A stretch of 64,000 nt of DNA from a virus (lineage: Duplodnaviria > Heunggongvirae > Uroviricota > Caudoviricetes), in the IMG/VR virus record IMGVR_UViG_3300032007_000002. One strand, written 5' to 3'. Numbering within the stretch: position 1 is the stretch's first letter; each line of letters starts with the position of its first letter. Below are positions 7,755 through 61,878 of this stretch, piece after piece. The notes beneath the pieces are model-generated. The model was not told the DNA's origin and did no database searches. It saw nothing but the letters and a program-made list of their open reading frames with translations. Both the position numbers and the translations under genes were made by a program.

Positions 7755-7769
7755 TGAAATATAGCAAAA
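7755..7769 (-). promoter_or_regulatory. conserved phage promoter-like motif (gene-oriented TTTTGCTATATTTCA)
   Basis: tgaaatatagcaaaa on the + strand, ~45 nt upstream of the minus-strand start at 7707. Confidence 0.55.
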
Positions 7770-7777
7770 ACCCGCTA

Positions 7778-8173
7778 CTACACGAGCGCCTGCAACGCCT
7801 TCGCAACGCACCATGTGAACAGCAGCATCATGGTGAAGTCATAGACGGCCAGGACCATTGCGATGCGGGTCCCCTTCGCGTAAGCGATTACGGAGGCAAG
7901 GGTTTCCACGGCGCTCGCGAGGACCATCATGGCCGCGACTACGATGCTGGCGGGTTCCCCGATGAACAGCCCGGAGACAGCCAGGAGGGCGATTGCGGTA
8001 CGTATGCCAAGCGCGATACCGAACGCCAGGTCGAAGTTCTCGGGAGAAACGCGTGCCGGGTCTTCCGGCTCCTTCTCCTCGTTTGCCCGTTTCATGCTGC
8101 GGTAACTGGCGATATCCCTGACGATCCTGGCAGCTTCGTAAACGATTGTGATGATGAACAGGTAGATAAGCAT
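7778..8173 (-). CDS. multi-pass membrane protein
   Basis: Several hydrophobic segments; motif copy at 8189-8203 upstream. Confidence 0.5.
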   Translation of the reverse strand: MLIYLFIITIVYEAARIVRDIASYRSMKRANEEKEPEDPARVSPENFDLAFGIALGIRTAIALLAVSGLFIGEPASIVVAAMMVLASAVETLASVIAYAKGTRIAMVLAVYDFTMMLLFTWCVAKALQALV

Positions 8174-8206
8174 TGTCGCTCCTTTTGTTGAAATATAGCA
8201 AACCGG

Positions 8207-8512
8207 CTAACGGATCCTCACCGGGCCCGTCGGGCGCAGTTCATAGCGGCGCCCGAGCTTCCACGTATGGCAGAATACGTCCCGCCCTTGGATATACTTC
8301 TCGTACTGGTCGCGATGGCACACGGGGCACACTGTCCCTTCCGAGTAGTCCTTCACGCGTCCGTCGCAGTCCTCCGCGGCGCACTTGTATAGCCGCAGCC
8401 CCCGCACGACAAGCAGGCCCTGGTCGAGTGCGCAATCCGGGCATATAGTCCCGATCTTGTAGTCGGGAACCTCTCCCGGGCAAATGCCGCCAAAATTGAC
8501 ACATCTGGGCAT
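8207..8512 (-). CDS. cysteine-rich zinc-finger protein
   Basis: CPGE..CPDC..CAAEDC..CPVCH. Confidence 0.45.
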   Translation of the reverse strand: MPRCVNFGGICPGEVPDYKIGTICPDCALDQGLLVVRGLRLYKCAAEDCDGRVKDYSEGTVCPVCHRDQYEKYIQGRDVFCHTWKLGRRYELRPTGPVRIR

Positions 8513-8530
8513 ATAGGCGCTCCTTTCCGG

Positions 8531-8929
8531 CTACTGCACGAGCGCCTGCAGGTCGTTCAACTGGATATACACATGCTTGTCTCGCTGGATCTCGTCGAGG
8601 GTCGCGTATGCGTCCTTGACGTAGAACTCCAGCATGCGGAAGCGCCGGTCGTAAATCATGCCGGTAATGGTGTCCACGCAGGCGAATGCCGGGTCGAACG
8701 GCTGTCCCTCGACCTTCTTCGAGATTTCCTTCCTCGCGCGGACGGCGTAGGCCATCTGGTGTGCCGCCTGGCGCATCTTGGTCAGGGTCTCCTTGTCCAG
8801 TCGGTCGGCGAACGCGTGCGACCACTTGAACGCGATGTCGCTCGTCTCGGCATAGATGGGGTTCACCTCGATGCCGGTCTTTTTGAGAAACTCGGCGACA
8901 GTCTTACGCATTTCAGTCTGGTTAGTCAT
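8531..8929 (-). CDS. hypothetical protein
   Basis: ORF track. Confidence 0.5.
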   Translation of the reverse strand: MTNQTEMRKTVAEFLKKTGIEVNPIYAETSDIAFKWSHAFADRLDKETLTKMRQAAHQMAYAVRARKEISKKVEGQPFDPAFACVDTITGMIYDRRFRMLEFYVKDAYATLDEIQRDKHVYIQLNDLQALVQ

Positions 8930-9611: not shown

Positions 9612-9652
9612 AAATTTCCTCTTGGTGCTGGGCTTGCCTGAAATATAGCAAT

Positions 9653-9820
9653 TTACGCCCGGCGCCGCTTGAACTTCCGGGAAATCTCGAAACGGGCGTT
9701 CGGGTTCAGCTGCGGGAGGCTTGAAGAAAGGAGCATCCAGCTGTTGTCAACCGTATGCTCCTTCCTGTATCTCTCCTCTGCCGCGAGCGCCCGGGACCAT
9801 GTGTCCTTGCGCCTGGCCAT
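9653..9820 (-). CDS. small basic protein (55 aa)
   Basis: ATG at 9820 preceded by AGGAGCCCCGCC; Arg/Lys-rich C-terminus; inferred from ORF 9653..9910. Confidence 0.35.
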   Translation of the reverse strand: MARRKDTWSRALAAEERYRKEHTVDNSWMLLSSSLPQLNPNARFEISRKFKRRRA

Positions 9821-12650: not shown

Positions 12651-12666
12651 GGAAATATAGCAAAAA
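12651..12666 (-). promoter_or_regulatory. conserved phage promoter-like motif
   Basis: ggaaatatagcaaaaa on the + strand, directly adjacent to the minus-strand ATG at 12647. Confidence 0.55.
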
Positions 12667-14743: not shown

Positions 14744-14747
14744 GAAC

Positions 14748-14774
14748 AAAATATAGTAAATTTTGCTATATTTC
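14748..14774. promoter_or_regulatory. divergent pair of promoter-like motifs (aaaatatagtaaa / ttttgctatatttc)
   Basis: Back-to-back copies between the minus start at 14743 and the plus start at 14779. Confidence 0.55.
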
Positions 14775-14778
14775 GGCC

Positions 14779-15814: not shown

Positions 15815-16066
15815 ATGACGCCGGAAGAACTCATAAAATACCTTCTCGAAAGCGGCTTCACCAAGAACGGCGACGACTACGAGAAGGACATCCTCGTGGC
15901 AAGGCGCAACGAGAAGGAAAAGCGGTTCGAGATATTCTACCGCGGCAAGGGAGACACCGAGGACACCCCTGCGGTTCACTGGTATGACCAGTTCCTTGCC
16001 GATTCGACGCCCGCCGCGATGAGGCAGCTCTTCACAGGTCTCTATGACGAGATAAAGAACTTTTAG
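15815..16066 (+). CDS. hypothetical protein
   Basis: ORF track. Confidence 0.45.
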   Translation: MTPEELIKYLLESGFTKNGDDYEKDILVARRNEKEKRFEIFYRGKGDTEDTPAVHWYDQFLADSTPAAMRQLFTGLYDEIKNF

Positions 16067-16094
16067 CTATATTTTACAGAAAGGAGCCATTCCC

Positions 16095-19028: not shown

Positions 19029-19032
19029 CCGT

Positions 19033-19046
19033 TTTGCTATATTTCA
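19033..19046 (+). promoter_or_regulatory. conserved phage promoter-like motif (ttttgctatatttc), ends at an in-frame ATG
   Basis: Motif followed immediately by ATG 19046 and ATG 19064. Confidence 0.55.
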
Positions 19047-23053: not shown

Positions 23054-23247
23054 TCCCGAATCTCCTCCGGGATGTCATGATACAGCAGGGACAACTGCGG
23101 GTCCCACGCGGCGTTCATCAGCGCATCCATCCCTTCCGGCCACTTGGCCCTGATGTTGAGCAGGCGGTTCCGTGCCTTCCTGGCCTTTTCAATCCTGCGC
23201 AGCTTCTTCACGCGCTTGCGCTCGCGTTTCCTTGCAATGTTTGGCAT
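23050..23247 (-). CDS. small basic protein
   Basis: ORF track; Lys/Arg-rich. Confidence 0.35.
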   Translation of the reverse strand: MPNIARKRERKRVKKLRRIEKARKARNRLLNIRAKWPEGMDALMNAAWDPQLSLLYHDIPEEIRE

Positions 23248-24424
23248 GATATTGCTCCATGGCTGTCAATATTTCCTTGTCGAACTCGTCGCGCACTTCC
23301 TTGAATAGAGGCTCAGACGATTGTCTAGTTTCGGGCGTGTCCGGCACTTCGGACGGCGTTCCGTGGCTAATCAGCATGTTTTGCCCCCTGTACGGTTCCG
23401 GGCGTTCGGCCCACGCAAGAACAATGCTGTCGTCATAGTAGTATTCGCCGGTCCCGTCGTCCCATTGCGGGTTCTCCCTGCTCCCGTAGAATATCGCGGA
23501 GCAGGTCTCCCTGCTGGTCGCGGAATGTTCAATGGTGACAAGGACACGGGCGCCCATGTCCGGGAGACGTTCCGAAGTCGGGATCCATTCTATTCCGCGG
23601 GAACGCTGGTGCTCTTTGGACGGTACCGAGACGAAAATCTCGCCCTCGTAGCGTTGCCTGAACGCAAAATACCCGATACGCTGGCGTTCGGTGGACGCCC
23701 AAACATCGTCGAGGCGCGGGTCGTCCTTCCATGTATGCTCGGACACGTGGAACGGGATCGTGCAGTTCTCCCAGAACGTGAGGTTCGCCGGACGCTGCCT
23801 GCCGAAGCGGTGCGCACCGCCGAGGACAAGTTTCGCCCTTGCGCGTGCTTCGTAGCCGGGGAACACTACGTTGGTGAACCCGCGCATCGCCCTGTCCGTC
23901 AGGCAACCGAAGTCGTCGAGGAACAGGAAGTCCCAACCAATGCCGCGGGTATTCTTTTCCAGTTCCGCGCGGGCGCAGAATACGCTCCCGTTGCAGAACC
24001 GTATCTTCTGCGCCGTCCACTCGGTCACGCCGGGCTGCATCCAGTACGGGATGCGCAGGTACATCTCCCGGACGATGGACTTGAAGTAGCCTTCCGCGCC
24101 CTTGCGCTTGGGTGCCATGTAGAGCGCGGCGTATTTCGGCTGGAACATGCAGGCCCACAGCATGTAGCCGAGGACTAGGGTGGTATAGCCGGCCTGCCGG
24201 TACCAGTCCCCCTTAATCAGCTTGTTGTCGCGGATCGCGTCGAGTTCCTGCACCTGCCTGGGCCGGAGGGGGAACTTTACCGCGCCGAGCACGGAATGGA
24301 TGTAGAAGTAGTTTTCGAGGAAGTATCTCGGGTCGTGCTTGCACTTCTCGATTTCGAGCAGCTGGGCCGGTTCGAGCCGGATCTCTTCTCCCTCGCCACG
24401 GAGGTCAGGATTGCGCCTATACAT
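23189..24424 (-). CDS. terminase-large-subunit-like ATPase domain protein with non-canonical Walker A and C-terminal DUF551-like domain
   Basis: FPLRPRQVQELD...YRQAGYTT (RQxGKT pattern with K replaced by Y)...DFLFLDDFG (Walker B); C-terminus LPDMGARVLV...YYDDSIVLAWAERPEPY resembles DUF551. Confidence 0.45.
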   Translation of the reverse strand: MYRRNPDLRGEGEEIRLEPAQLLEIEKCKHDPRYFLENYFYIHSVLGAVKFPLRPRQVQELDAIRDNKLIKGDWYRQAGYTTLVLGYMLWACMFQPKYAALYMAPKRKGAEGYFKSIVREMYLRIPYWMQPGVTEWTAQKIRFCNGSVFCARAELEKNTRGIGWDFLFLDDFGCLTDRAMRGFTNVVFPGYEARARAKLVLGGAHRFGRQRPANLTFWENCTIPFHVSEHTWKDDPRLDDVWASTERQRIGYFAFRQRYEGEIFVSVPSKEHQRSRGIEWIPTSERLPDMGARVLVTIEHSATSRETCSAIFYGSRENPQWDDGTGEYYYDDSIVLAWAERPEPYRGQNMLISHGTPSEVPDTPETRQSSEPLFKEVRDEFDKEILTAMEQYHAKHCKETRAQAREEAAQD

Positions 24425-30238: not shown

Positions 30239-30274
30239 TGAAATATAGCAAAATACGCGGATTTGCTATATTTC
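30239..30274. promoter_or_regulatory. divergent pair of promoter-like motifs
   Basis: tgaaatatagcaaaa (minus gene) and atttgctatatttc immediately followed by ATG 30275 (plus gene). Confidence 0.55.
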
Positions 30275-31108
30275 ATGGCGGAGGTTTTTACCATGATAGA
30301 ACACCAGCTCAAATTTTTCGCCCCGCTCACGTTCACCCGCGACTCCGACGACTTTGAAATCGACCCGCCCCACTGGAAACTGCTCGAAATAATCGAGGAG
30401 CTCGAATGCGACAAGGAAGTCCTCGCGTTCGCCTGCGCACCCTCGCTCGCCGACAGCCTCCACGAGGGGGACACCAGCAAGGGAAACGTAATCAGGGAAA
30501 TCACGACCCATGTCAGCGCCCGCAACAAAAAGCTCTACGTATGCTTCACCGTCACCGCGGACAAGATGGCGAACTTCTACCAGTTCACCCAGGAAGTCGT
30601 AGACTACCTCGACGGGCAGATTTCGGACGGGTGGGGAGAGAACTTCTTCCCGGACGTCGAGATTGACCGCGAGGACCACACCATCCGCGTCAGGCACATC
30701 GAGTTCGTCGAAATCCCGGGCATCGCGTTCGACACGAAGGGGAAATACCGCGACTGCGTCCGCTATATCGTCAACGACACCAACTGCGAGATCGACGACC
30801 CCTACGAAGGCAAGCTGAAGGACCTCGGCTTCCTCTACGGCGACCACGACACCAACAACATCCTCGGGGAAATGCAGACTGTATGGAAAGCCGCTTCCAA
30901 GGACAGCAAGTATGCAGTGGACGCCTTCGACCGGGTCCTGGAAAGGTTCAATTCCCCGTTCAGGCACTACGAGACGGTGACTCCCGATTTCATCCGCGCG
31001 TTGGTCAAGTTCATGAAGCCCAAGGGCTGCGAACGCTACCCAATCGACGACAAGAAACAGAAGCTGCTCGACAAGTACGAGGAAAAGTTCATCAAACGCG
31101 TCAAATAA
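30275..31108 (+). CDS. hypothetical protein
   Basis: Track ORF 30263..31108 begins MLYF, which is the translated motif; first ATG is 30275. Confidence 0.55.
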   Translation: MAEVFTMIEHQLKFFAPLTFTRDSDDFEIDPPHWKLLEIIEELECDKEVLAFACAPSLADSLHEGDTSKGNVIREITTHVSARNKKLYVCFTVTADKMANFYQFTQEVVDYLDGQISDGWGENFFPDVEIDREDHTIRVRHIEFVEIPGIAFDTKGKYRDCVRYIVNDTNCEIDDPYEGKLKDLGFLYGDHDTNNILGEMQTVWKAASKDSKYAVDAFDRVLERFNSPFRHYETVTPDFIRALVKFMKPKGCERYPIDDKKQKLLDKYEEKFIKRVK

Positions 31109-34107: not shown

Positions 34108-34122
34108 TGAAATATAGCAAAA
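34108..34122 (-). promoter_or_regulatory. conserved phage promoter-like motif
   Basis: tgaaatatagcaaaa 4 nt from the minus-strand ATG at 34104. Confidence 0.55.
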
Positions 34123-35796: not shown

Positions 35797-35860
35797 TGAA
35801 ATATAGCAAATCTACTATATTTCGGTCAGAACACACCGGCTGGCCAGTTTGCTATATTTC
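35797..35860. promoter_or_regulatory. divergent promoter-like motif cluster (three copies)
   Basis: tgaaatatagcaaa (minus gene) plus tctactatatttcgg and tttgctatatttc 4 nt before ATG 35865 (plus gene). Confidence 0.55.
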
Positions 35861-35864
35861 AGTC

Positions 35865-38393: not shown

Positions 38394-38424
38394 AGATAAG
38401 CAAATGTCCCCAGAACACTTAAAA

Positions 38425-40035: not shown

Positions 40036-40617
40036 CGTGTTCGTCCTCCTTCGCGGCTTCCTGCATCTGTTCGTGGTATGCGCGATAGGAAGTGAGGAAA
40101 TTTTCCGCATAGATTGACGCGCGGACAAGGTCCGGGTGAAGACCGGGGATAAGGGAAATTTCGCGCAGGACGGTGGTCGCGTAGTCGATTTCCCCGATCT
40201 TGTTGTCGGTCCCCCAGCTCATCGCCGTGGCCACGGTGTTCTCGATGCGGGTGCGGACGATTTCCGGGTCCGGGCAGTTGCCGTTGAGGAAGGCGCACAT
40301 CGCACGGGCTTCTTCCTCGTCCTGGTAGAACCGGCGGTCGAAACAGTGGTTGTCCATCCAGTTCTTCGCGCACTTCAAAGTCGGCTCGTCGCGCTTGAGC
40401 GTGTAGGGCTTGAACTTGAACTTTCCGCCGGCACCGACATAGATGTAGTACACGGTGGCTTCCTTGATCTTGTTCTTCACCGCGTTCTCCAAGTCGAACG
40501 GGGTAATGGGGCCGCGTTCTCGGCATGCCTGGATGAAGGCTTCCGAGTTGATTTTCGGCAGCCTTGCCAGGCGTTCGCGAAGTTCACTGATCGATGCGTA
40601 TTCGCTCATCATCTTCT
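40028..40617 (-). CDS. hypothetical protein
   Basis: Start MMSEYAS after AGGAGAAG; from track ORF 40028..40771. Confidence 0.5.
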
Positions 40618-43154: not shown

Positions 43155-43228
43155 ATTTTACCTCTGCCTGAAATATAGCAAAAACCCACCGTATGTGGTG
43201 GGTTCCTGTGAAAAACTGCCGTTACATG

Positions 43229-44788: not shown

Positions 44789-44824
44789 TGAAATATAGCA
44801 AAAAATCGAAAATTGCTATATTTC
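44789..44824. promoter_or_regulatory. divergent pair of promoter-like motifs
   Basis: tgaaatatagcaaaaaa (minus gene) and attgctatatttc then AAAGAGGAAA-ATG 44847 (plus gene). Confidence 0.55.
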
Positions 44825-44846
44825 AGGCATCAAAGAGGAAACTACT

Positions 44847-46294: not shown

Positions 46295-46767
46295 ATATGC
46301 CTCCGTCTCCAAATATACAATTTTGCTGCCGGATAACCTAGTTTCAACGCATGAGCAAACACATCAAACGCAGATCCTTACGTGCACGGCTCGTCGATAC
46401 ATTCATCCGACCGTTCATCCCCGAAATCGTCATCCCAGACCTTTCCAGCTCCGTAGTCGAATACGGCTACAAGGGCGCCTACTTCCAGTTGCGGTATATC
46501 AACAGGAAGAAAAGACGCTGATCGCTTGGGATGGCGCCGGTATTTTTGTATATTTATTGGCACAACCGTTTCTAGAGCGGGTCGAAACATCCCACCGAAC
46601 CTAAGACGGCAGGCATTAGCTCCTCCCCTGGTAGCGAAATCGCCTGCGCAGTCGGACGTGCAGACTGTACGTCACGTAGTGGCCGGATCGTCAGTCGGAC
46701 GAGTTGGCAGCCTCGGGATGATCAAAACCGGTAACGGAAAACTGCCACCCATTTACACGGAGACACC

Positions 46768-47212: not shown

Positions 47213-48495
47213 TTGTAGAGGTGCGGGATCATGACATCGTTGCGTATTGTGACGCCAGGTCTAATGATGTCCCCGTAGTCAATGAACGCCGGATCAATAT
47301 CGTCCCCGCCCAGGGTTTCCATGCCGAATTGCAACGAGACTGCACGTACATTATAGCCCTCAGCGCGGCTTCTCCCGCAGGAATGGCATTCATCGCAGTC
47401 GCAAATCACCACATGGAACAACCACTGGCGACGATCGGCAAAGACGCTCTTGATCGCCATGTCCCCGCTGGCCCCGTAGATTATCGCACGTTCCTCATCG
47501 GTGAACTTGGCATACACCGTGCAGGCAATCGAGGGCGCTTCGCAGCTGAGCGGGAGACCGCCCAATCCGTGCTTCTCCACGAACTCGGTAACCATGGCCT
47601 TGTCCCACTTGATGAGCGGGAACGTATAGGACGGCTTGCGGGCAACCTGGGTCTCGAACTCCGGCGCATGGTTTCCGTACAGGTGGCTGAGCGCAAACGC
47701 GCCGTCATAGAGTTTCCGCATGTCCTCGATAAACGTCTCGGACTGGTCCCCCTTGACAATCCCCATCTGCACCTCGTCCAGCAGGGACGTGATTTGCGGG
47801 TTGATGTAGGCAAGGCTGAACGTATTGACCGGCTGCTGGATGAAACCCTCGAACTTGCCGCCATAGTTACACGCCCCGGCAGGGAAATTGATGCCGCGAT
47901 ACATAGGCATCAGGATGCCCGGACCCTTGTAGGTCTTCGATATTGCGGCAAGCATCGTATATGCGAGTATCGGGGCAACTTTAAACTCGGCGTTGAGCCA
48001 GTTGTAAATCGGGAATACGACCTTACCCTCGTCCAGGTTCTTGAGAACGAGCGCCGTGCTGTCCATGCCTCCGGTAAACAGGACGCCTACCGCATTGGTC
48101 GGCTGTCCGTGTTCCCATTCGGGATTGAGCGTCCTGATTGCCGATGTCAGGCGGTCCGGGTAGCCATCCATCCTGGAAAACGCATTCTTGACCATGTCCT
48201 CGACCACATCCACTTGCGGGTAGCTTGTGCTCCAAAAATTGTAGGTATCTTTCTGCATGTGGCTAATCATGGTGAACCCGAGCGCATCCATGACTTCCTG
48301 CTTGCGCTCGCGGTAGAGAATGGGTACCCGGCGGTCAAACACCTTGGTGTCGATGTCTAGTCCCTGCATGCGGATGCCGAACCGCTCCCTGAACGGGAAC
48401 CTGGCAACCCATTCATTCGCAATCTTTTCTGCACGAACGGGAAACCCGACGGAATTATTCGGTTCCATCAGTTCCATGTCAGCTTTACTGCTCAT
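47209..48495 (-). CDS. PP-loop ATP pyrophosphatase superfamily protein, QueC-like, with C-terminal zinc-binding cysteine cluster
   Basis: VGVLFTGGMDSTALVL (SGG.DST PP-loop) and CDCDECHSC; start MSSKAD after GGAGGAAGCCG; co-transcribed downstream of the beta-class methyltransferase. Confidence 0.5.
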   Translation of the reverse strand: MSSKADMELMEPNNSVGFPVRAEKIANEWVARFPFRERFGIRMQGLDIDTKVFDRRVPILYRERKQEVMDALGFTMISHMQKDTYNFWSTSYPQVDVVEDMVKNAFSRMDGYPDRLTSAIRTLNPEWEHGQPTNAVGVLFTGGMDSTALVLKNLDEGKVVFPIYNWLNAEFKVAPILAYTMLAAISKTYKGPGILMPMYRGINFPAGACNYGGKFEGFIQQPVNTFSLAYINPQITSLLDEVQMGIVKGDQSETFIEDMRKLYDGAFALSHLYGNHAPEFETQVARKPSYTFPLIKWDKAMVTEFVEKHGLGGLPLSCEAPSIACTVYAKFTDEERAIIYGASGDMAIKSVFADRRQWLFHVVICDCDECHSCGRSRAEGYNVRAVSLQFGMETLGGDDIDPAFIDYGDIIRPGVTIRNDVMIPHLYK

Positions 48496-49291
48496 CGGCT
48501 TCCTCCCGGAAGATAGTCTTGAGACTGCCATGGAAGTCGCCCTTGTTCATCTCGGCGGCCAGCTTGACGATGCGCGTCCCGGCAATCTCGAAGTATTCCT
48601 TGTCGATTTCCATGCCGATGAACCTGCGGCCTTCCTTCAACGCAGCAAGGCCGGTGCTGCCGCATCCCATGCAGTTATCGAGGACGACATCGCCTGGTTC
48701 CGTGTAGGAACGGATAAGCCAGGAAAGAAGTTCCACGGGCTTTTCCGTGCGGTGTTCGGACTTGGACGGGTGCGGTTTCGGAATGTCGATGATTGACACC
48801 GGGTATTTCTGGGTGCTGCCCTTGCGGACGTCGTCCGTGGCCTTGAACTTGCCGTAGTTGTTGTTCACCATGTCCTTGGACATGTAGGACTTGCCGCGGC
48901 CGTGGAGGGGCTTCCCTTCGTGGAACTGCGGGTTGAACTTCGGCATGGACTTGTAGAACACGGCAAGCTGCTCGTGGGAACGGAGAGGCATGCGCTTGGC
49001 GTTCAGGAACCCGGTGACGAGCTTCTTGTTCCAGACCAGGTCGTATCGGAACAGCTTGCGCCTAGACTGAACCAGGTCAACGTAGAACAGGCCCTGGGCG
49101 AACAGGACGATGGCCCCGTCATCCTTGATGACACGCTCATACTGTTCCCATAGGGGTTCGAACGGGATGCGCTTGTCGTGCGGGTTGTGCGTGACGCCGT
49201 AAGGGAGGTCGCACAGGATCATATCGACCGACTTGGGGGCGAGCTTCTTCATCTCCTCCAGACAGTCTCCGAAAAACAGCGAATAGGACAT
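48485..49291 (-). CDS. beta-class N6-adenine/N4-cytosine DNA methyltransferase (CcrM/HinfI-like motif order IV then I)
   Basis: ILCDLPYG (DPPY-type motif IV) near the N-terminus and VVLDNCMGCGSTGLAA (motif I) near the C-terminus. Confidence 0.8.
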   Translation of the reverse strand: MSYSLFFGDCLEEMKKLAPKSVDMILCDLPYGVTHNPHDKRIPFEPLWEQYERVIKDDGAIVLFAQGLFYVDLVQSRRKLFRYDLVWNKKLVTGFLNAKRMPLRSHEQLAVFYKSMPKFNPQFHEGKPLHGRGKSYMSKDMVNNNYGKFKATDDVRKGSTQKYPVSIIDIPKPHPSKSEHRTEKPVELLSWLIRSYTEPGDVVLDNCMGCGSTGLAALKEGRRFIGMEIDKEYFEIAGTRIVKLAAEMNKGDFHGSLKTIFREEADEQ

Positions 49292-51352: not shown

Positions 51353-51405
51353 TGAAATATAGCAAAATTCAAGATAGGAAAACTGGCCCGAAATTGCTAT
51401 ATTTT
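51353..51405. promoter_or_regulatory. divergent pair of promoter-like motifs
   Basis: tgaaatatagcaaaa (minus) and aattgctatattttg then AGGAGA-ATG 51423 (plus). Confidence 0.55.
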
Positions 51406-51422
51406 GTGTAGGAGATACACAA

Positions 51423-52623: not shown

Positions 52624-52626
52624 ACA

Positions 52627-54537
52627 TTAGTCCTTATATAAAGAAACCCCGACAGCTTTTGCAAATAGGCCACACCGATTTTTTCTCGGTTTGGTTTCCG
52701 GCCCAATAAATATATAATTGGGGGCAATAACATGGGCCTTAATTAGTTTAACCCATTCAGCAAATGTTATGTCAGACATTTCGTCCGGTGTTCCCTTCCA
52801 ATGCTCATACTGTTTGCCAAACGGTGGGCACACTACAACAACCTTGTTTGTGTGAATGACCTGCGCAAGAACATCCCGATTAGTCCAACCATACCATTTA
52901 CAAAAATTTACGTTGATGTCGTATGCTTCCACATCAGGCGGTAAGCCACGGTCCTCAAACCATCGAGTTACACCTCTTACTATACCACCGAACCCGGCCA
53001 TCGGACAATATACCCCAGCACTTAAGTCAACACCGCTCTCCTCGATAATTTTCAACAGCACAGTTTCGTCCAGGGCGGTTACCTTTGGTGCAATTTTTGC
53101 TATGGTAAACCGATCGAGAACCTTCGTTGCATAATCGCCCGAAATCAATGACTTGATATGTCGAGTGCAAAACGCATCATACTTTCCCGAAATCAGCGAA
53201 TCGTTGATCGTCTTAATCATATTCTGGACAGCACGTTCCAATTTTGCATCATCATGCCATGCGGACCGAGGATCCATATAGCCAGGAACGTAGCAATCCC
53301 ATATAGGATGCGCAGCCGGCCATTTAGTGGTTCCCGGAAAATCTGTCATGACGCAATGGTTCTTGATCAACTCCGGCGTAAGGTCAATGTTAAATACAGC
53401 TGAAATGAACCGTAATACATCACAACCAACCACAAGCGTCACATTATTCGTCAAAATACACTGTAGCTTGGCGTATTCCTTCGTATCAGGAATCTGCATA
53501 TATTTATATAGATGCTCACCCTTGATTTCAAACAGCCTATCCCCTATTCGGAAATCCGGGAAGAACCAATGTTCCTCCCCGGCAAAGGAGTATTCTAACT
53601 TTACCTTGGGGTGATATTCAAAATCTACGTCCATGCAGCGCAGGAAATTATAGAACGCATACTCATACGAAGAATCGAAAGATACCCCATTTACCGTAAA
53701 CTTATGCCACATTTTTGACTGAAACTCGGGTGTTTGCGAAAATGAACGAACACCAAACCGTTCCTGGCAAGTTTGCTGCATTTGCTGCACATTATGATAA
53801 TTCTTGTCGCCATATTTATCTGCGCATGTCTTATATTGTCCTTGCTCACGCAATTCGGCGGATGCCCAATTATGCCTAACACCAAATTTTGCGAGGCAAG
53901 TCATTTCCCGTTTTTCGCGTATCTGGGCAATCTTTTCCTCATCAAATGCAGCCAGCTTATCGCGAACCTTTTGACGGTGTTCGGGATTATTCATTGCATT
54001 GTTTCGGCTACGCAATTTTGATGTACATTCCGGCGACCCACATACATTATGGTAGTGGGTTCCCATCCATTTTGCCGGTCCACCGCAAATTTCGCATTTA
54101 CCGGGCGCTATGCCCATATATTTATTATAATATTGCTCGACCGTAATGTCTGTATGTTTTTTATTTAAATGACGGTTTAATGTGAGCAAAGACATATACC
54201 CGTGCCCACACAGGGCACAGCAAAACTTATATATTATTTGCCGTTTTGGTTTGATCTTATCCGCATGTCGGCAGGCTTTGCCATATCGGGCACGCATCGT
54301 TTCGTGCTGGAGTTTGCGGACACAGGTGGGGTCATTGCAGGTATCATAATACCCATGATAGTTGGTAAACGCACATTGTTTGCCACAATACGGGCACACA
54401 TGTTCAGTCGGATCTACATACGTATCATAATACGTCTTATAGGGCATCTTATGGGTTCGCTGAATGTGATTGGTAAACCCGTTCAACGAATATACCTCTC
54501 CGCATTTCGCACATGTATATTTGATTTTCATTTTCAT
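52627..54537 (-). CDS. multidomain protein: N-terminal C2H2-like zinc fingers and KFGV repeats, PD-(D/E)xK (Vsr/DUF559-like) nuclease domain, C-terminal gamma-class-like DNA methyltransferase domain; homing-endonuclease-like insertion between nrdD and nrdG
   Basis: CAKCGEVYSLNGFTNHIQRTH and CALCGHGYMSLLTLNRHLNKKH; repeats K..T..KFGVR../ERFGVRSFSQTPEFQSKM; SSYEYAFYNFL...FFPDF...RLFEIKGEHLYK (D...E.K); C-terminal PMAGFGGIVRG (motif I-like) then VVVCPPFG (motif IV-like); AT-rich relative to flanks. Confidence 0.55.
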   Translation of the reverse strand: MKMKIKYTCAKCGEVYSLNGFTNHIQRTHKMPYKTYYDTYVDPTEHVCPYCGKQCAFTNYHGYYDTCNDPTCVRKLQHETMRARYGKACRHADKIKPKRQIIYKFCCALCGHGYMSLLTLNRHLNKKHTDITVEQYYNKYMGIAPGKCEICGGPAKWMGTHYHNVCGSPECTSKLRSRNNAMNNPEHRQKVRDKLAAFDEEKIAQIREKREMTCLAKFGVRHNWASAELREQGQYKTCADKYGDKNYHNVQQMQQTCQERFGVRSFSQTPEFQSKMWHKFTVNGVSFDSSYEYAFYNFLRCMDVDFEYHPKVKLEYSFAGEEHWFFPDFRIGDRLFEIKGEHLYKYMQIPDTKEYAKLQCILTNNVTLVVGCDVLRFISAVFNIDLTPELIKNHCVMTDFPGTTKWPAAHPIWDCYVPGYMDPRSAWHDDAKLERAVQNMIKTINDSLISGKYDAFCTRHIKSLISGDYATKVLDRFTIAKIAPKVTALDETVLLKIIEESGVDLSAGVYCPMAGFGGIVRGVTRWFEDRGLPPDVEAYDINVNFCKWYGWTNRDVLAQVIHTNKVVVVCPPFGKQYEHWKGTPDEMSDITFAEWVKLIKAHVIAPNYIFIGPETKPRKNRCGLFAKAVGVSLYKD

Positions 54538-54568
54538 AGATACCCCAGCAAATTATACTAGATGTCTT

Positions 54569-54583
54569 GGAAATATAGCAATA
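54569..54583 (-). promoter_or_regulatory. conserved phage promoter-like motif upstream of the inserted nuclease/methyltransferase gene
   Basis: ggaaatatagcaata about 32 nt upstream of ATG 54537. Confidence 0.5.
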
Positions 54584-54618
54584 ACAGTTTATAATGTCAA
54601 CCCAAATATCAAAAACGC

Positions 54619-54652
54619 ATCCGCCGGTGGCGGATGCGTTATTTAACTGATG
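54619..54652 (-). terminator. rho-independent terminator after nrdD
   Basis: Minus strand: acgcatccgccaccggcggatgcgt followed by ttttgatatttgg. Confidence 0.6.
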
Positions 54653-54661
54653 ATTTGACAA

Positions 54662-57220
54662 TTAGATGTTGTGCCGGTCGCCCAGTTCTTTCACCTTGCC
54701 ATCATTCCAGGACAGTTTAATAGTCTTCCTGGGTGACCCGGTTAAATATCCCGTGATACGGCGGACTCGGATGAAATACTTCTCATCCTTGCACCCGCAC
54801 TTGGGGCACACATTGTCGATAATGCCGTGATAGCCGCACTTGATGCAGTCGTCGCTATCCATCGTGACGGTGAAATAGCCGAGATTGCCATTGTACATCG
54901 CGTCGATCGCGGCAGCGACGGCTTCCACGTTCTTGGTCAAGTCGCCGTTCAGCTTGTAGTAGAAGATATGCCCGGCGTTGGTGAGCGCGTGGAACGGGGC
55001 CTCCACCTTGATCTTGTCGTCGAGTGACACGTCGAGGGAGAAGTCCATCATGTGGGAATTGGTATAGTAACCCTTTCCGAAGATGCGCTGGAGGTTGACA
55101 TCAGCCAGCTTCTTGTTGTCGCCGAACTTCTTGGCGTCGATTGTAGCGAAGCGGCCGGCGACAGCTTCCGCCGGCGTGGCGAAGCAGGACCAGTTCATGT
55201 GCGTCTTCTTCTGGGTAGCGTCGCAGAAGTCGCGGATGTGCTTGACGATGGACACGGCGAGCGCATCGACTTCGTGGTCAACGCCATAGGTCTTGCCGGT
55301 AAGGAGCGTAATGGTTTCCGCGATGCCGATATAGCCGATGGAGAGCGTGGACTGCTTCATCACTTCGGCGATATCATCGGAAAGTTCGTGTTCCTTGTCG
55401 TCGGACGTGAGATAAAGACCTTCCTGCATAGTGAACGGGAACGTCTTGTAAGTCTTCATGCACACGAGGTTGAAACGTTCAACCAGGCTTTCCTTGGCGT
55501 CGTCGAGCATGCCGTCGAGCTTCTCGAAGAACACCTTGATGCGGTCTTCCTCGGAGGACTTGGCGATACGGGCCTCGATGGCGAGACGCGGGAGGTTGAT
55601 CGTGTGGAAGGCAAAGTTGCCTCTGCCGGTAGTCTGTTCCGGGCCGTTGACATTGCCGATGACACGGGTACGGCAACCCATCGTCGCAACGGTGGTGTTT
55701 TCGACCAGCTTGCGAAGGTTGAGGACGCTGCCATCGAAGTCAACGACTTCCCAGATGTCGTCATGCGCGATGTGATATTCGTAGATCGGGAACTCGGTCT
55801 TTTCGACGCGTTCGACATTTTCGAACTCGTCCTTGCCGCGGACCTTGACAGCCAGAGGACCGTCAGTGACGACAATCGTCTTGGTCAGGTACTTGACGTA
55901 GGGCTTGTTGAAGGTGGAGTCCACGGACACGAAGTTCGGGTAGAAACGGCGGGCGAGGCAACGGATTGCCTGCTGCTTGAGGTCAAAGTTCGGGTCGGTT
56001 TCGAGGAACGTGTAGCCCTTCATGAGCTTGAAAATCAAAATCGGGAAGATGGCGGTAAGGCCGTCACCCATGCCTTCATACTGTGCACGCATGAGGTTCT
56101 TGCTGACCATGCGGCCGCAAGCGGACACGTCGAGACCGAAGTTGAGGGAGCTGAACGGGACCTGGTTGCCGGAACGGCTCTGCAAGGAGTTCAGGTTGTG
56201 GACAAGGGCCTCCATTGCCTGGTGGGTATCGCAGTCGGTGAACGCGATTGCCTTGTCGATACACTTCTTCGGGAACAGTTCATAAAGTGCGCTGGTCGGG
56301 GTGTTCATGGACACGCCGTCCTTGGCCAGGCCCTTCGTGATGCGCTTGATGGTTGCTTCGATATCGGCATCGCCTTCCTGCTGCAGGTACTGGGCAAATG
56401 CCGGATCTTCGGAATAGTCGGCCTTTGCGTTGAGCTGGATTGCGAGGTTCCTGCGGAAGGAACGGTCCACGAACGGGGCGAGCTCGAAATCGAAGTTGTC
56501 GCAGGCGATGCCGCCATACTGCTGGTTGCTCTGGAGCTGGAGGATGACCGCGGTAAGCGCAGCTGCGCTCTGGATGGTCTGTGCGGGGCGCTGGAAGCCG
56601 GTACCGGAGTCGAAACCGGTGCGGAGCTTCTTGCCGACAGGCGCAAAGAGGCAGTTGAACGTAAGGTCATACATGTTGAGGTCGTGGATGTGGAGGTAGC
56701 CGTTCGTATGCTCCTCCGCATACTTCTTGCTGACGTTGTCGAGCAAGTTATACATCTTGTTGGTTTCCGAGGCAATCTTGCCGTACATGCCTGCCGGGGT
56801 GTCGCCGGACTCGTTGGCGTTGTCGCGCAGGATGTTGGAACTCGGGAGATCCGCGTGCTTGATTTCGCGGACGGTCTTGATGATGGGGGAGCGGAGTGCT
56901 CTTTCGCGGTCGCGCCTGTTGCGCACGATGATGTATGCGTCATAGGCATCCATCGAGACTTCGCGTAAAACTTTCTTTACAGCGTCCGCGACGGAGTCGT
57001 TGCTCACACACTTCTGCTTCATGTCATACAGGATGTCAACTACGTCACCGGTGAGTTCTTCGACTCGTTCCTGGGTGAAATCTACTTTCGCATCGACAAG
57101 CGACTTACTGATACAGCGTTCAATCTTCAATGGGTCGAATTTCTGCCGTCCGCCGTCCTGCTTCTTAACCTGCCGCAGAAACGTGCGTTCCGACATCTTT
57201 TCATCCTTCGTATCGTCCAT
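54662..57220 (-). CDS. nrdD: anaerobic ribonucleoside-triphosphate reductase (class III) with N-terminal ATP-cone
   Basis: ATP-cone (LRQVKKQDGGRQKFDPLKI), ATMGCRTRV active-site region, C-terminal CIKCGYHG..CPKCGC zinc ribbon and glycyl-radical motif RVRRITGYLTG; AGAGGAAATTCC SD. Confidence 0.9.
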   Translation of the reverse strand: MDDTKDEKMSERTFLRQVKKQDGGRQKFDPLKIERCISKSLVDAKVDFTQERVEELTGDVVDILYDMKQKCVSNDSVADAVKKVLREVSMDAYDAYIIVRNRRDRERALRSPIIKTVREIKHADLPSSNILRDNANESGDTPAGMYGKIASETNKMYNLLDNVSKKYAEEHTNGYLHIHDLNMYDLTFNCLFAPVGKKLRTGFDSGTGFQRPAQTIQSAAALTAVILQLQSNQQYGGIACDNFDFELAPFVDRSFRRNLAIQLNAKADYSEDPAFAQYLQQEGDADIEATIKRITKGLAKDGVSMNTPTSALYELFPKKCIDKAIAFTDCDTHQAMEALVHNLNSLQSRSGNQVPFSSLNFGLDVSACGRMVSKNLMRAQYEGMGDGLTAIFPILIFKLMKGYTFLETDPNFDLKQQAIRCLARRFYPNFVSVDSTFNKPYVKYLTKTIVVTDGPLAVKVRGKDEFENVERVEKTEFPIYEYHIAHDDIWEVVDFDGSVLNLRKLVENTTVATMGCRTRVIGNVNGPEQTTGRGNFAFHTINLPRLAIEARIAKSSEEDRIKVFFEKLDGMLDDAKESLVERFNLVCMKTYKTFPFTMQEGLYLTSDDKEHELSDDIAEVMKQSTLSIGYIGIAETITLLTGKTYGVDHEVDALAVSIVKHIRDFCDATQKKTHMNWSCFATPAEAVAGRFATIDAKKFGDNKKLADVNLQRIFGKGYYTNSHMMDFSLDVSLDDKIKVEAPFHALTNAGHIFYYKLNGDLTKNVEAVAAAIDAMYNGNLGYFTVTMDSDDCIKCGYHGIIDNVCPKCGCKDEKYFIRVRRITGYLTGSPRKTIKLSWNDGKVKELGDRHNI

Positions 57221-57316
57221 GGAATTTCCTCTAAGTTGGGGTGGTGCCGGCGGTGCGGGAGGACCGTTTCCGTCGGCGGGTAGTCATTGTTTATAATAAA
57301 ATCGGTGCCAAGGTTA

Positions 57317-57332
57317 GTGCACAAATGTGCAC
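57317..57332. promoter_or_regulatory. inverted repeat GTGCACA-AA-TGTGCAC in the nrdD upstream region (candidate operator)
   Basis: Seen directly between the upstream terminator and the nrdD start; no copy of the phage motif in this intergenic region. Confidence 0.3.
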
Positions 57333-59187: not shown

Positions 59188-59881
59188 TTCCAAACTCCTT
59201 TTCACAGAAAACGTCAATGGCCCCGGTACGCCTGCGGTATTCGGCGAGCGAATGGAGCCACCCCCTGCCGCAGTGGCCGAGGTGGATGATGGCCGGGGCG
59301 CTCAGGTAGAGCGTCTCCAGGACCCTGGTCGGCATGTTCTGGCGCCTGAACACGACTTCGGCGCCCTCGTGGGAGAGGAACGCCGAGAGGTCGGCAAACA
59401 CCCGTGCCGTGCCGGTAAAGACTGTATGGCAGACGAGGGCAACCTTCCTGAACCGGCTGGCGTCGAAAGCCTTCCGAAGGGCGTCGAGCGAGTTTTCCCG
59501 CAGAGCTCCCCCGATTACCACGTCGTAGTCCATCGCCGTCGGCAGGTGGACGAACCGGTCAAGGTCGAGTGGGAACGACGGGAGGTCGATGCACTTCTTG
59601 CCAAAATCCGGGTGTTCAAAACCGCCAAGGCACAGGACGTGCTTGGCGAGCAGCGCAGCCGGCTTGTAGTTGGGGAACCAGTCGTGCAGAACGGCGATGC
59701 GCGGGCCGTACCAGCCTCCGGGAACCTTCTGGATGTTGCCGTCCGCACACTGCACCACGACCGGCGCACGGGACGACATGTCGAAATATCTCGTATCGTG
59801 GAGATAGGACGCGACCGATGTCGCGAACATGTTCGTCTTGGAACACTCCTGGCCTATCTCCTGGCGGATGAACTGGATCAT
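59132..59881 (-). CDS. hypothetical protein, translationally coupled to the upstream glycosyltransferase
   Basis: ATGA overlap with the glycosyltransferase stop; alternating hydrophobic/Gly pattern (possible nucleotide-binding fold), function unknown. Confidence 0.45.
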   Translation of the reverse strand: MIQFIRQEIGQECSKTNMFATSVASYLHDTRYFDMSSRAPVVVQCADGNIQKVPGGWYGPRIAVLHDWFPNYKPAALLAKHVLCLGGFEHPDFGKKCIDLPSFPLDLDRFVHLPTAMDYDVVIGGALRENSLDALRKAFDASRFRKVALVCHTVFTGTARVFADLSAFLSHEGAEVVFRRQNMPTRVLETLYLSAPAIIHLGHCGRGWLHSLAEYRRRTGAIDVFCEKEFGNEEFASVRQVAEILGNAT

Positions 59882-60990
59882 GCCTTGCCTCTAGCTTCCT
59901 TAGCCAGTTTAACGAGGCGCTCCCTGATACCGTTAAGCTCGGCGAGCTGTTCGGGCGTCTTGGGGTTGAGCGGCATGAGGATGTTGTCGAGGAACTGCAC
60001 GGACACTTCCGGCCCGTCCTCCTGGAGCACCACGTCCATGAGCTTCGTGAAGGTCAGGTCGTCCACGGTCTCGCCGTCGGCGAGGACATCGTAGATGGTG
60101 GTGTCGATGGTAAGGAACATCCCGGGGACGCACGGCCACTCGATGTGGGTAACCAGGGCGCCGCGGTCGCTATACCCGTGGGCGAGCCCGCCGAGGTCTT
60201 CATCCCCGCGAAGGTAGCGTTCCCAGTCCTCGTCGGTCATCTTGCGGATGCAGGCGCACAGCTTGCGGTTTTCGCGGTAGTCCAGGGACTTGACATACTC
60301 CGGCGTGTTCACCTTCGGGTGGAACAGGTGCATCACGGCACCCCTGCCGGTGTTGTTGCGGATCACCTGGCGCCCGAGACGCTTCACCTTGAAGCAGAAG
60401 GCGTCGTCCTCCGCGCCCCAGTTGATGAACTCCTCGTCGAACCCCTTGACCGCACGGTAGAGCTCCCGGGAGAACACGTTGCACAGGCCCGTCTGGCGGG
60501 AAATCACCACGCCGTGGTTCTTGACGCCCGGGCGCATCGGCTGCCCGCTGATTACGCTGCGCGTGTCGCTTTCGTCGAGATAGAACACTTCCGCATACGG
60601 GAACACGAGGTTGTTCTCGTCCCGGTGGTCCCGGATATAGTCGAAGGCGCCCATGTCGAGGAACGCGTCGGCATCCGCGAGGATGTAGAACTTGTAATTG
60701 GGGAACTTCTGGATGGCCTCGTTGAGGATGCGGGTCTTATGGAACGAGTCGTAGTCGCACTCGACCATGATGTGCGAAACCGTCCCGGCATCCACGAACT
60801 TCTCGGCATAGCCGGCCCAGCGGGCTTCGGCCTGCTCGACGGTCCCGCTACGGATCTGCTCCGTGACGACGATGTCCGCCTCCGGGAAGTTCCTGAGCCA
60901 GTTGTTCACAACCTCGATGAGGTTTCTGCGGCGGAAATATGCCCCCGCCGTCGGTTCCTTGTATGCTACGAGTGCGCAAAAGTCGTTCAT
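59878..60990 (-). CDS. GT-A fold glycosyltransferase (GT2/galactosyltransferase-like) with extra C-terminal domain
   Basis: YILADADAFLD (DxD) and INWGAEDDAFCFKVKRLG (WG.EDD...R); start MNDFCAL (ATG 60990); variant motif TTTGTATATTTTGACC abuts the ATG. Confidence 0.6.
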   Translation of the reverse strand: MNDFCALVAYKEPTAGAYFRRRNLIEVVNNWLRNFPEADIVVTEQIRSGTVEQAEARWAGYAEKFVDAGTVSHIMVECDYDSFHKTRILNEAIQKFPNYKFYILADADAFLDMGAFDYIRDHRDENNLVFPYAEVFYLDESDTRSVISGQPMRPGVKNHGVVISRQTGLCNVFSRELYRAVKGFDEEFINWGAEDDAFCFKVKRLGRQVIRNNTGRGAVMHLFHPKVNTPEYVKSLDYRENRKLCACIRKMTDEDWERYLRGDEDLGGLAHGYSDRGALVTHIEWPCVPGMFLTIDTTIYDVLADGETVDDLTFTKLMDVVLQEDGPEVSVQFLDNILMPLNPKTPEQLAELNGIRERLVKLAKEARGKA

Positions 60991-61007
60991 GGTCAAAATA
61001 TACAAAT

Positions 61008-61859
61008 TTACTGCGAAATTTGGCAGTTTTTGCTGCACAAAATGAGTTCTACCGTTTCGGAAGTCTTGCTCTTCTTGGCGGCCTTGTAAACATGCGGAAC
61101 TTCCGTGGTGTCATACATGCCGCTGTCGCGGAGGGTCTCCACCAGGCGGGTAGTCTTCCCGTCCTTGCTGCAGCTGGACAGGACATACTTGTAGCCGGGG
61201 TGGGAGAGCATGAACGCGGAGAGCTTGTCGTCGTCCGCCACCGTCCACGTAGAATTGTAGCCGGCCTCGGTGTTGGAATACGGCGGATCGAGATAGACGA
61301 CGGTACCTTCCGCCGGGATGCGCTGCGCCATGCTGTCGAGGACGCGGTCGAACGAGCCGTAGCCGAAGAACACCTTGCCCTTGGCCGATTGCAGGCGCTC
61401 GCACCATGCGCGGATTTCCCTTTCCTTGTTGTCGGTAAGCTGGCGCTTGCCGCAGGTCTGGTTGAAGCCGCCCTTAAGGTTGAACCGCATCAGGTTGTTC
61501 GTGCAGGAAAGGATGAGGCCGTAGAGACGGTAGCCGCGGTCCGGGCCATTCGGGGGGAGGGCGTTGTAGGCGCTGCGCAACTCGGCATACTTCTCCGGGT
61601 CCTTGGAGGAAAGTTCCTTCAGCCGGGCGATGACCTGGTCCGGGTCGTCGTTCTGGAGACTGCGGTGCATCTGCACGAGGTCGCGGAGGATATCCGTGAC
61701 GCAGACGTAGTTGAAACGGTAGGAAAGGTTCACGCCGACCGCGCCGGAACCGCCGAACACGTCGAAAAGGCGTTCGCCCTGCGGGATGAGCCGGTCAAGG
61801 TGTGTGAGCAGGTCATACTTGCAGCCTGCATACGGGAATGGGGAATTTATAAAGTCCAT
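61008..61859 (-). CDS. dam: Dam-family (D12 class) N6-adenine DNA methyltransferase
   Basis: FPYAGCK (N-terminal Dam motif), DVFGGSGAVG (motif I), VVYLDPPYS (motif IV); motif 61863-61878 abuts the ATG. Confidence 0.8.
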   Translation of the reverse strand: MDFINSPFPYAGCKYDLLTHLDRLIPQGERLFDVFGGSGAVGVNLSYRFNYVCVTDILRDLVQMHRSLQNDDPDQVIARLKELSSKDPEKYAELRSAYNALPPNGPDRGYRLYGLILSCTNNLMRFNLKGGFNQTCGKRQLTDNKEREIRAWCERLQSAKGKVFFGYGSFDRVLDSMAQRIPAEGTVVYLDPPYSNTEAGYNSTWTVADDDKLSAFMLSHPGYKYVLSSCSKDGKTTRLVETLRDSGMYDTTEVPHVYKAAKKSKTSETVELILCSKNCQISQ

Positions 61860-61862
61860 GAC

Positions 61863-61878
61863 CAAAATATAGCAAAAA
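61863..61878 (-). promoter_or_regulatory. conserved phage promoter-like motif
   Basis: caaaatatagcaaaaa; minus orientation TTTTTGCTATATTTTGGTC then ATG. Confidence 0.55.

Follow-up and report, generated by a model that had tools for sequence, protein, structure and literature searches.

Sequence analysis of an uncultivated bovine-rumen huge-phage lineage points to an extended -10 promoter class with frequent leaderless spacing

A recurrent 15-nt element in the window and its relatives

The stretch of DNA analysed here (the window, 64,000 nt, IMG/VR record IMGVR_UViG_3300032007_000002) is phage DNA with 56% G+C, and the subject of this work is a 15-nt element, TTTTGCTATATTTCA, that recurs just upstream of many of its genes. 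The gene content of the window includes an array of 13 transfer RNA (tRNA) genes, nrdD, nrdG, an intein-containing EcoRI-like methyltransferase, a flotillin-like gene, a T4 gp30.3-like gene, an HU gene, a ClpP-like head protease gene, Dam-type methyltransferases and an IS605-type TnpB insertion. Megablast of 20 kb of the window against the GenBank phages gave no match, and no close relative was found among them. A scan of IMG/VR with the motif alone retrieved several contigs with multiple matches, including unlinked ones; identity to the window is 94-96% for some of them and about 77% for one, L054. One protein of the window is shared with contigs from bovine (rumen) metagenomes, the longest of which measures 432,464 bp (ENA ERZ27256887 k141_1178800), which indicates a huge phage. 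Overall, about 170 kb of the lineage was examined (171 kb of non-redundant sequence for the counts), the largest related contig being 432 kb long.

Expectations for the window were derived from dinucleotide-preserving shuffles. Over its whole length, the 14-mer TTTTGCTATATTTC occurs 18 times with at most two mismatches, against 0.25 expected and a shuffle maximum of 2. The 9-nt core GCTATATTT or ACTATATTT, i.e. (G/A)CTATATTT, is present in 22 copies, all facing a downstream open reading frame (ORF), and the form GCTATATTT reaches 43 copies in the 171 kb of non-redundant lineage sequence, where 0.3 would be expected. A position weight matrix built from the motif copies separates 21 strong sites (score of at least 22) well from the background, the shuffles giving 0-6 matches at a score of at least 10; besides these 21 strong copies of TTTTGCTATATTTCA, the window holds 4-5 weaker variants. 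All the strong sites are intergenic, in a window of which intergenic DNA makes up 6.4% (binomial P ~8e-26), and each has a same-strand start codon 5-49 nt past the core. A preliminary description of this DNA had counted about 20 copies of the motif, placed them just upstream of start codons on the correct strand, and called for a weight-matrix analysis of their enrichment and of their strand and position bias. The matrix bears out this picture of enriched, intergenic and gene-facing sites, with coordinates that all agree within 1 nt and with the same divergent pairs (14747-14775, 30239-30275, 44789-44825 and 51353-51406). Two of the sites it listed, 46309 and 60993, are present as a variant without C (TTGTATATTT) and not as full copies. 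A literature search with the motif string returned only unrelated primer matches.

The element is conserved where its surroundings are not. Two divergent pairs of L054 match those of the window base for base in both motif copies, with the spacer and the leaders rewritten, and upstream of a leaderless gene the distance from motif to ATG is kept with the five intervening bases changed. Regions of related genomes with no sequence in common with the window contain the motif as well, among them replication modules encoding a DNA polymerase, a clamp loader, helicases, a ligase and a thymidylate synthase, and one copy stands directly upstream of a tRNA gene in a relative (L045 8882).

Alignment of the copies reveals information solely at positions -18 to -4 (TTTTGCTATATTTCA) and at one conserved A (1.3 bits), mostly preceded by C, located 7 nt downstream of TATATT; the -35 region contributes 0.0-0.3 bits per column. 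The element can be parsed as T(-15)G(-14), an invariant C(-13), TATATT at -12 to -7, then T(-6)C(-5)A(-4). TG occupies -15/-14 in 18 of the 21 strong copies, replaced by TA or AG in the other three, and TATATT, which conforms to TAnnnT with A(-11) and T(-7) included, is found in all of them; in the C-less variants TG abuts the hexamer directly. Extended -10 promoters are characterized by a TG one base upstream of a TAnnnT hexamer and by their independence from a -35 element (PMC7403470). At the sequence level the present motif displays the TG, the TAnnnT hexamer and no conserved -35, and its TG-C-TATATT agrees with the extended -10 consensus TGnTATAAT at 8 of 9 positions. The former statement that it matches no sigma-70 -35/-10 pair should accordingly be revised, as it does obey the rules of the sigma-70 family, in the form of an extended -10 element lacking a -35. 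Pairs of TTGACA and TATAAT are not enriched between 28 and 48 kb (10 against 10.8 expected), so no competing set of conventional promoters is visible. Judged from its sequence, the motif is almost certainly a promoter class of this phage lineage, referred to below as class 1.

The distance between this element and the start codon reveals a second regularity. An ATG lies exactly 6 nt past TATATT at 8 of the 21 strong copies of the window (8 of the 22 core copies), the starts concerned being 12647, 14743, 14779, 30235, 34104, 35865, 51349 and 61859, and a variant at 60996-61005 shows the same spacing (start 60990), which brings the predicted leaderless starts to nine. Among 56 non-redundant sites of the lineage, the ATG is found at 6 nt in 11 and at 5 or 7 nt in 3, against about 1 expected, so that leaderless-type sites account for about 25% (14/56). 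This spacing is not due to chance. With an ATG 6 nt past the hexamer, the start codon would open with the conserved A, the predicted +1. The genes predicted to be leaderless have no Shine-Dalgarno (SD) sequence; over the window, a clear SD precedes 49 of 88 genes. The other class-1 copies are followed by leaders of 15-50 nt with an SD of the AAAGGAG or GGAGG type. Leaderless mRNAs are therefore predicted for about a third of the window copies, and short SD-bearing leaders for the rest. Leaderless operons of bacteria carry as their signature a Pribnow-type box 6-8 nt from the start codon, SD sequences being used elsewhere (PMC6028130). A -10 box at this distance together with the absence of an SD is found at 8 of the 21 strong sites, at the 60996-61005 variant and at 14 of the 56 lineage sites, and the spacing is kept in L054, L209 and L211. 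Proximity of a TATATTT core to the ATG had already been pointed out for 12647, 14779, 34104, 35865, 51349, 60990 and 61859, where it holds, and for 30275, where it does not: the latter gene begins at an in-frame, SD-led ATG at 30293, a start preferred because the relative L041 does not have the first ATG. The SD leaders formerly recognized ahead of 43154, 44768, 44847, 51423 and 16095 are all found again in our site list.

Class-1 sites of the window and a second motif class

Leaderless geometry is encountered on the minus strand at 12651..12665, where ATG 12647 is the predicted +1, and at both sites of a divergent pair whose left half (14747..14761, minus strand, a TTTACTATATTTT variant) serves ATG 14743 and whose right half (14761..14775, plus strand) serves ATG 14779. 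It is also found in one half of the next divergent pair (30239..30253, minus strand, ATG 30235), the other half (30261..30275, plus strand) preceding the SD-led start 30293. The promoter at 34108..34122 (minus strand) comes directly after the tRNA array and faces a leaderless NIF3-like gene (ATG 34104), the operon of which includes a gene for a tandem helix-turn-helix protein (32774-33265). On the plus strand, a copy at 35847..35861 with ATG 35865 is preceded in tandem, 37 nt upstream, by the ACTATATTT copy at 35810..35824. Further leaderless sites on the minus strand are those at 51353..51367 (ATG 51349; L054 has the same spacing with different intervening bases), at 61863..61877 (ATG 61859, a Dam-like methyltransferase gene) and, as the C-less variant TTTGTATATTTT, at 60994..61008 (ATG 60990, a glycosyltransferase gene).

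Leaders with an SD follow the minus-strand promoters at 7755..7769 (full TTTTGCTATATTTCA form, 49-nt leader, start 7707), 8189..8203 (SD AAAGGAG, start 8173) and 9639..9653 (start 9611), and the plus-strand promoters at 16062..16076 (a TTTAGC variant, start 16095) and 19032..19046 (SD GGAGG). Upstream of the 13-tRNA array, the minus-strand copy at 35797..35811 has an SD leader leading to a small ORF (35587-35781). At 43169..43183 (minus strand, SD leader, start 43154), the T-run of the motif doubles as the tail of a terminator hairpin located upstream (43179-43208). The divergent pair formed by 44789..44803 (minus strand, start 44768) and 44811..44825 (plus strand, start 44847) has SD leaders on both sides, and both of its halves are kept in L054; the plus-strand copy at 51392..51406 has a leader with SD AGGAG before start 51423. 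A C-less variant at 46311..46324 (minus strand, TTGTATATTT) is followed by a leader with SD GGAGG and start 46294, and another at 46543..46556 (plus strand, TTTTTGTATATTTA) is separated from the gene at 46768 by about 210 nt. This last stretch (region 46543-46767, promoter included) is G+C-rich and untranslated and reaches the gathering score of no Rfam family; it may fold into a structured leader or correspond to a small RNA.

Two sites lie at borders of low-GC DNA. The class-1 core at 54569..54583 (minus strand), with a perfect TTGACA 17 bp upstream of TATATT, is at the edge of an inserted low-GC gene (DUF7487, 52627-54537). A weak copy at 4034..4048 (minus strand; GCTATATTTCA without the TTTG part), with an ATG 9 nt past the hexamer, marks the border of the window's low-GC left end. 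The first 4 kb (1-4000) have 44% G+C, against 56% elsewhere, and carry plus-strand genes preceded by TATAAACT-like boxes (1205, 1896) in place of the class-1 motif; this part may be a distinct module or a recent acquisition. Two low-GC insertions, at 37246-38585 and 52625-54662, are missing from the close relatives. The first is an IS605-type TnpB gene (37293-38393), and another TnpB is located at a different site in the 432-kb relative (L213 8561-9850). The second is the 636-amino-acid DUF7487 gene, which has a promoter of its own made of TTGACA, a 17-bp spacer and TGCTATATT.

Examination of the intergenic regions devoid of the class-1 motif uncovered a second element, (A/C)TAAACTA(C/T), present in 17 copies in the 171 kb of non-redundant lineage sequence, against 1.4 expected. 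In the window it is found at 62427-62434 (minus strand), 62485-62492 (plus strand) and 1205-1212 (plus strand), and in the relatives at L066 5899/5941, L045 5513/5985/8205/11931, L112 7149, near L209 12732 and at L211 3472/11415. It stands upstream of a tail sheath gene (L066 5993), of the head maturation protease gene of the window (61879-62421, preceded by the site at 62434) and of an operon ending in the large terminase gene (L209 12732). The plus-strand copy at 62485 faces no gene, because the genes on either side of it are minus-strand genes. If TAAACT is placed at -12 to -7, this class 2 has the geometry of class 1, in several cases with an ATG 6 nt downstream; it is frequently back to back with a class-1 copy, and L213 has the two classes in tandem. 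The genes behind class 1 are non-structural, comprising small uncharacterized genes, DNA methyltransferase genes, the NIF3-like gene and the small ORF before the tRNA array. Class 1 presumably serves early/middle, non-structural genes, and the TAAACTA class late, structural genes.

Several other features of the regulatory regions were noticed in the course of this survey. About 290 nt upstream of the tRNA array, a hybrid box at 35492-35520 (minus strand), TTTGCTAAACTT, combines the upstream half of class 1 with the hexamer of class 2 and has TTTACA 17 bp upstream, so that the array may have promoters of both classes. Upstream of nrdD (54662-57220, minus strand), the absence of the class-1 motif and the presence of an inverted repeat are as first described, the repeat being the palindrome GTGCACAAATGTGCAC at 57317-57332. 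It lies 19 nt upstream of a TATAAACAAT box (region 57280-57332), and both are kept in L054 (77%) with the sequence between them diverging. The layout resembles that of a class-2-like promoter with an operator or activator site centred near -41, through which the anaerobic ribonucleotide reductase might be controlled in response to oxygen or nucleotides. In several relatives (L045 1071, L023 956, L114 1431, L014 1553 and L211 4777), a G+C-rich hairpin followed by a T-run begins 5-10 nt past a class-1 promoter, for example upstream of the thymidylate synthase gene and of the sigma gene of L211. These promoter-proximal hairpins may be terminators or attenuators, which would place a delayed subset of genes under antitermination control.

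Among the other genes of the window, 23189-24424 (minus strand) encodes a degenerate 411-amino-acid paralogue of the ATPase domain of T4-type large terminases, with 26% identity to the real terminase of the lineage and GYTT instead of GKST in its Walker A motif; an AT-rich region with TTTTATAAGGTAAAC precedes it. The EcoRI-like adenine methyltransferase gene (40609-42738, minus strand) is split by a Hint/LAGLIDADG intein, and at least two further DNA methyltransferase genes are present (48485-49291 and 61008-61859).

Candidate readers of the motif

Scans with Pfam and PHROGs detected no sigma factor or RNA polymerase in the window. A match to sigma region 4 at 32774-33265 was rejected as a sigma factor, the product being the tandem helix-turn-helix protein, which is devoid of region 2. 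The search beyond the window that the preliminary description had called for did yield a sigma-70-family gene in related contigs: a 264-amino-acid protein is encoded at 7968-8762 (plus strand) of the 172-kb contig IMGVR_UViG_3300028887_003391 (L121). It comprises regions 1.2, 2 and 4, with region 3 shortened, and its closest solved relatives are RpoS and SigA (E ~1e-31). The sigma factors of the lineage, which range from 253 to 290 amino acids, are also encoded at L209 ~6161-6968, L211 ~4800-5643 and L215 10001-10762. The gene is convergent with the large terminase gene, which contains a LAGLIDADG intein in several relatives, and this pair is kept in relatives whose sigma is 98%, 62% and 47% identical; the motif too is found in those with only 62% and 47% identity. 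A class-1 copy lies directly before the sigma gene in all four contigs checked (L121/L122, L209 and L211), which represent three sigma variants. No RNA polymerase of the beta/beta' or T7 type was found among the matches listed from Pfam and PHROGs for the window and about 80 other proteins of the lineage, a sample that covers less than half of the sequence of the 432-kb related contig. A weak and hence uninformative search of the sampled lineage sequence for a gp55-like protein gave no match either.

The host was approached through several phage proteins. Among cellular proteins, the phage sigma is closest to alternative sigma factors of metagenome-assembled genomes of Fibrobacteres, at only 38-40% identity. 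A scan with one Fibrobacteres sigma retrieved sigma factors broadly from the FCB group and the spirochaetes, and no enrichment of the motif was seen in 1.3 Mb of their neighbourhoods. The homologues of the phage DNA ligase are nearly all metagenome proteins, on contigs of up to 480 kb, and homologues of the inserted TnpB are located on further phage-like contigs that lack the motif, one of which encodes a Fib_succ_major domain protein. The sigma relatives and this domain protein are weak hints of a Fibrobacteres host; the heavy use of SD sequences (49 of 88 genes) would argue against a member of the Bacteroidota.

We consider it somewhat more probable than not, at about 55%, that class 1 is an early/middle, -35-independent extended -10 promoter used by a sigma-70-family holoenzyme on the host core enzyme, the sigma being most likely the primary sigma of the host. 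In such a scheme the host primary-sigma holoenzyme would read TTTGCTATATTT at early/middle genes, the phage sigma gene included, and transcription would start at the conserved A, 7 nt past the hexamer. Where this +1 A is the A of an ATG the mRNA would be leaderless, and elsewhere it would have an SD leader of 15-50 nt. The phage sigma, or another late factor, would then direct the host core to (A/C)TAAACTA at structural and packaging genes. As the class-1 promoters have no -35, a factor displacing sigma region 4 could silence the -10/-35 promoters of the host and spare those of the phage. Such factors are known, P23-45 gp39, T4 AsiA and Xp10 P7 all displacing sigma region 4 in a way that turns host -10/-35 promoters off and spares extended -10 ones (PMC7403470). 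We infer the assignment of sigma factors to classes, the timing and the host shut-off, and regard a two-step cascade as the most economical arrangement. The dedicated phage sigma or polymerase that had been proposed at the outset fares unevenly: a sigma factor is encoded outside the window, behind class 1, but it more likely serves class 2, because its own gene lies behind class 1 and a second class precedes the late genes, and no phage RNA polymerase was seen in about 170 kb.

Several observations weigh against this reading. Conservation over 15 nt, with C(-13) and T(-6)C(-5)A(-4), exceeds what a generic extended -10 promoter needs, so that a more selective reader would fit. The L121 sigma has a lysine at the position equivalent to K173 of RpoS, a residue that contacts and favours C(-13). 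The motif is missing from L217 and L218, two other TnpB-bearing phage-like contigs, and the match is to a general consensus and not to that of the host's own primary sigma. Promoter activity and start site are themselves predictions from the sequence, and genes for additional sigma factors, for a gp55-like factor or for a phage polymerase may lie beyond the roughly 170 kb sampled.

The strongest competitor, possible and clearly less probable, holds that the RpoS/SigA-like phage sigma on the host core reads the motif, which would then be a phage-specific middle class; the sigma gene would amplify its own expression after a weak start by the host, and TAAACTA would be served by a gp55-like factor encoded elsewhere. 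The conservation of a sigma-70-family gene in the lineage speaks for it, together with the strict 15 nt and invariant C(-13), suggestive of a selective sigma, and the lysine of the L121 sigma. The promoter of the L121 sigma gene has TTGTCA 16 bp upstream of the hexamer, which makes a host-driven start possible. The T4-type terminase, gp30.3 and clamp-loader genes of the phage are also in line with it, as is the resemblance of the class-2 TATAAACTA to the T4 late promoter, TATAAATA. This explanation meets a bootstrap problem, however, since the sigma gene stands behind the same motif in all four contexts and for three sigma variants. Moreover, the K173-equivalent residue is K, R, K, S or L across the phage sigmas with C(-13) fixed throughout; this lack of co-variation argues weakly against the phage sigma as the motif reader. 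Two motif classes with one sigma are explained by a simple cascade, and the gp55-like factor was missing from the sampled parts in a weak search. A broader version, which we hold to be rather doubtful, has the motif as the site of a phage-controlled holoenzyme, with either the RpoS-like phage sigma or a remodelled host sigma that ignores the -35, and both classes placed so as to yield leaderless mRNAs. If true, it would keep a channel of transcription and translation open during the shut-down of host -10/-35 transcription and of SD-dependent initiation.

It is improbable that class 1 is instead the early promoter of a phage-encoded RNA polymerase, either virion-borne as in phiKZ, AR9 and N4 or made early, and that its likeness to an extended -10 element is coincidental. 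Promoters of the virion polymerases of phiKZ-like phages are also long, AT-rich and conserved, with a start 6 nt downstream and no -35 (PMC5312081), and the genome is a very large one (a related contig measures 432 kb, and about 170 kb of the lineage was sampled). Against it stand the lack of a polymerase among the matches listed for the window and about 80 lineage proteins, and the presence in the lineage of a sigma factor with regions 2 and 4, implying that the core enzyme of the host is used. The geometry is also closely that of the sigma-70 family (TG, TAnnnT, A at +7), and one copy (54569-54583) has the consensus TTGACA at 17 bp.

Least likely is a role other than mainly that of a promoter, be it as a repeated cassette for regulation or recombination, as an operator bound by a phage protein or as a signal for translation, since the fusion of some copies to terminator hairpins (43179-43208), the tandem helix-turn-helix protein of the window (32774-33265) and the shuffling of promoter and stem-loop cassettes by T4-type phages are outweighed by the strict gene-facing orientation, the fixed distance to the ATG, the obedience to -10 rules with an A at the predicted start, the copy upstream of a tRNA gene (L045 8882), the lack of a palindrome, unlike most operators, and the position upstream of SD sequences, by which the motif is not a ribosome-binding site.

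Other known elements were compared with the motif and rejected. An archaeal TATA box does not fit, the ATG being 6 nt and not ~25 nt downstream and SD sites being in use. The T4 MotA box (TGCTT at -30) has the wrong position. The T4-type late promoter TATAAATA differs from the motif, which is TATATTTC and precedes non-structural genes, TATAAACTA being the class found before late genes. The promoter of Bacteroidota reportedly consists of TAnnTTTG at -7 and TTTG at -33 (19-21 bp upstream); TATATTTC fits TAnnTTT, ends in C and not G, has no -33 element, and occurs alongside SD use.

With an extended -10 class read by a sigma-70-family holoenzyme as the favoured explanation, two short motifs of shared geometry provide a promoter grammar for an uncultivated huge-phage lineage of the bovine rumen. 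This grammar corrects gene starts, nine of them predicted to be leaderless and several automatic calls being wrong, and sorts genes into likely early/middle and late sets without expression data, the phage sigma factor being the probable switch between the classes. If true, it would offer a compact case of a huge phage that combines a two-step cascade and frequent leaderless translation, and the motifs could serve to flag fragments of the lineage in metagenomes.

Comparison with known promoter systems

The middle/late promoters of Thermus phage P23-45 are likewise of the extended -10 class, without -35, and drive the phage's own genes (PMC7403470). Compared with these and with generic extended -10 promoters, the conserved block of the rumen phage is longer and stricter (15 nt, invariant C(-13), TCA discriminator) and has TATATT instead of TATAAT. 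Its class 1 precedes non-structural and not late genes, no counterpart of gp39, gp76 or AsiA and no early phage polymerase was identified, and the two phages are unrelated, as are their hosts and habitats. Many of the middle/late transcripts of P23-45 are reportedly leaderless.

In group C of GeneMarkS-2 (Actinobacteria, Deinococcus-Thermus), a box lies 6-8 nt from the start in 25-50% of first genes and SD sequences are used for the others (PMC6028130). The rumen phage is similar in that 8 of its 21 promoters have the box 6 nt from the ATG and its internal genes have clear SD sequences; it differs in being a phage genome, with a promoter sequence far more uniform than that of any host genome.

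The early promoter of the AR9 virion polymerase, AAATATATATTAT-(6N)-G, is also long, AT-rich and near-invariant, has no -35 and is present in tens of copies, and AR9 has genes with both early and late promoters, to which the class-1/class-2 tandem of the relative L213 can be compared (PMC5312081). This form, a long AT-rich motif with a start ~6 nt downstream, is found in the rumen phage as well, where a sigma-70-family reading explains it equally. The leaders of AR9 measure 26-491 nt, whereas many of 0 nt are predicted here. In contrast to phiKZ and AR9, no split beta/beta' genes were found among the matches listed, and a sigma-70-family gene is present, of which no example is known in phiKZ-like phages.

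The -10 consensus of RpoS is reportedly KCTAYRCTTAA, with C at -13, and GCTATATTTCA agrees with it at about 9 of 11 positions, C(-13) included, by comparison with this consensus string and not with a curated model. Unlike in RpoS, the lysine reading C(-13) is not conserved among the phage sigmas, whereas the motif is. In the cascades of SPO1 (gp28 then gp33/34) and of T4 (gp55), a phage sigma gene is likewise placed under an earlier promoter class, with a distinct late motif lacking a -35; the sigma of the rumen phage differs in being a full RpoS/SigA-like protein, not gp28- or gp55-like, and its presumed class follows from the gene arrangement. The motif is a lineage-specific member of a familiar kind, the extended -10 phage promoters acting within a phage sigma cascade.

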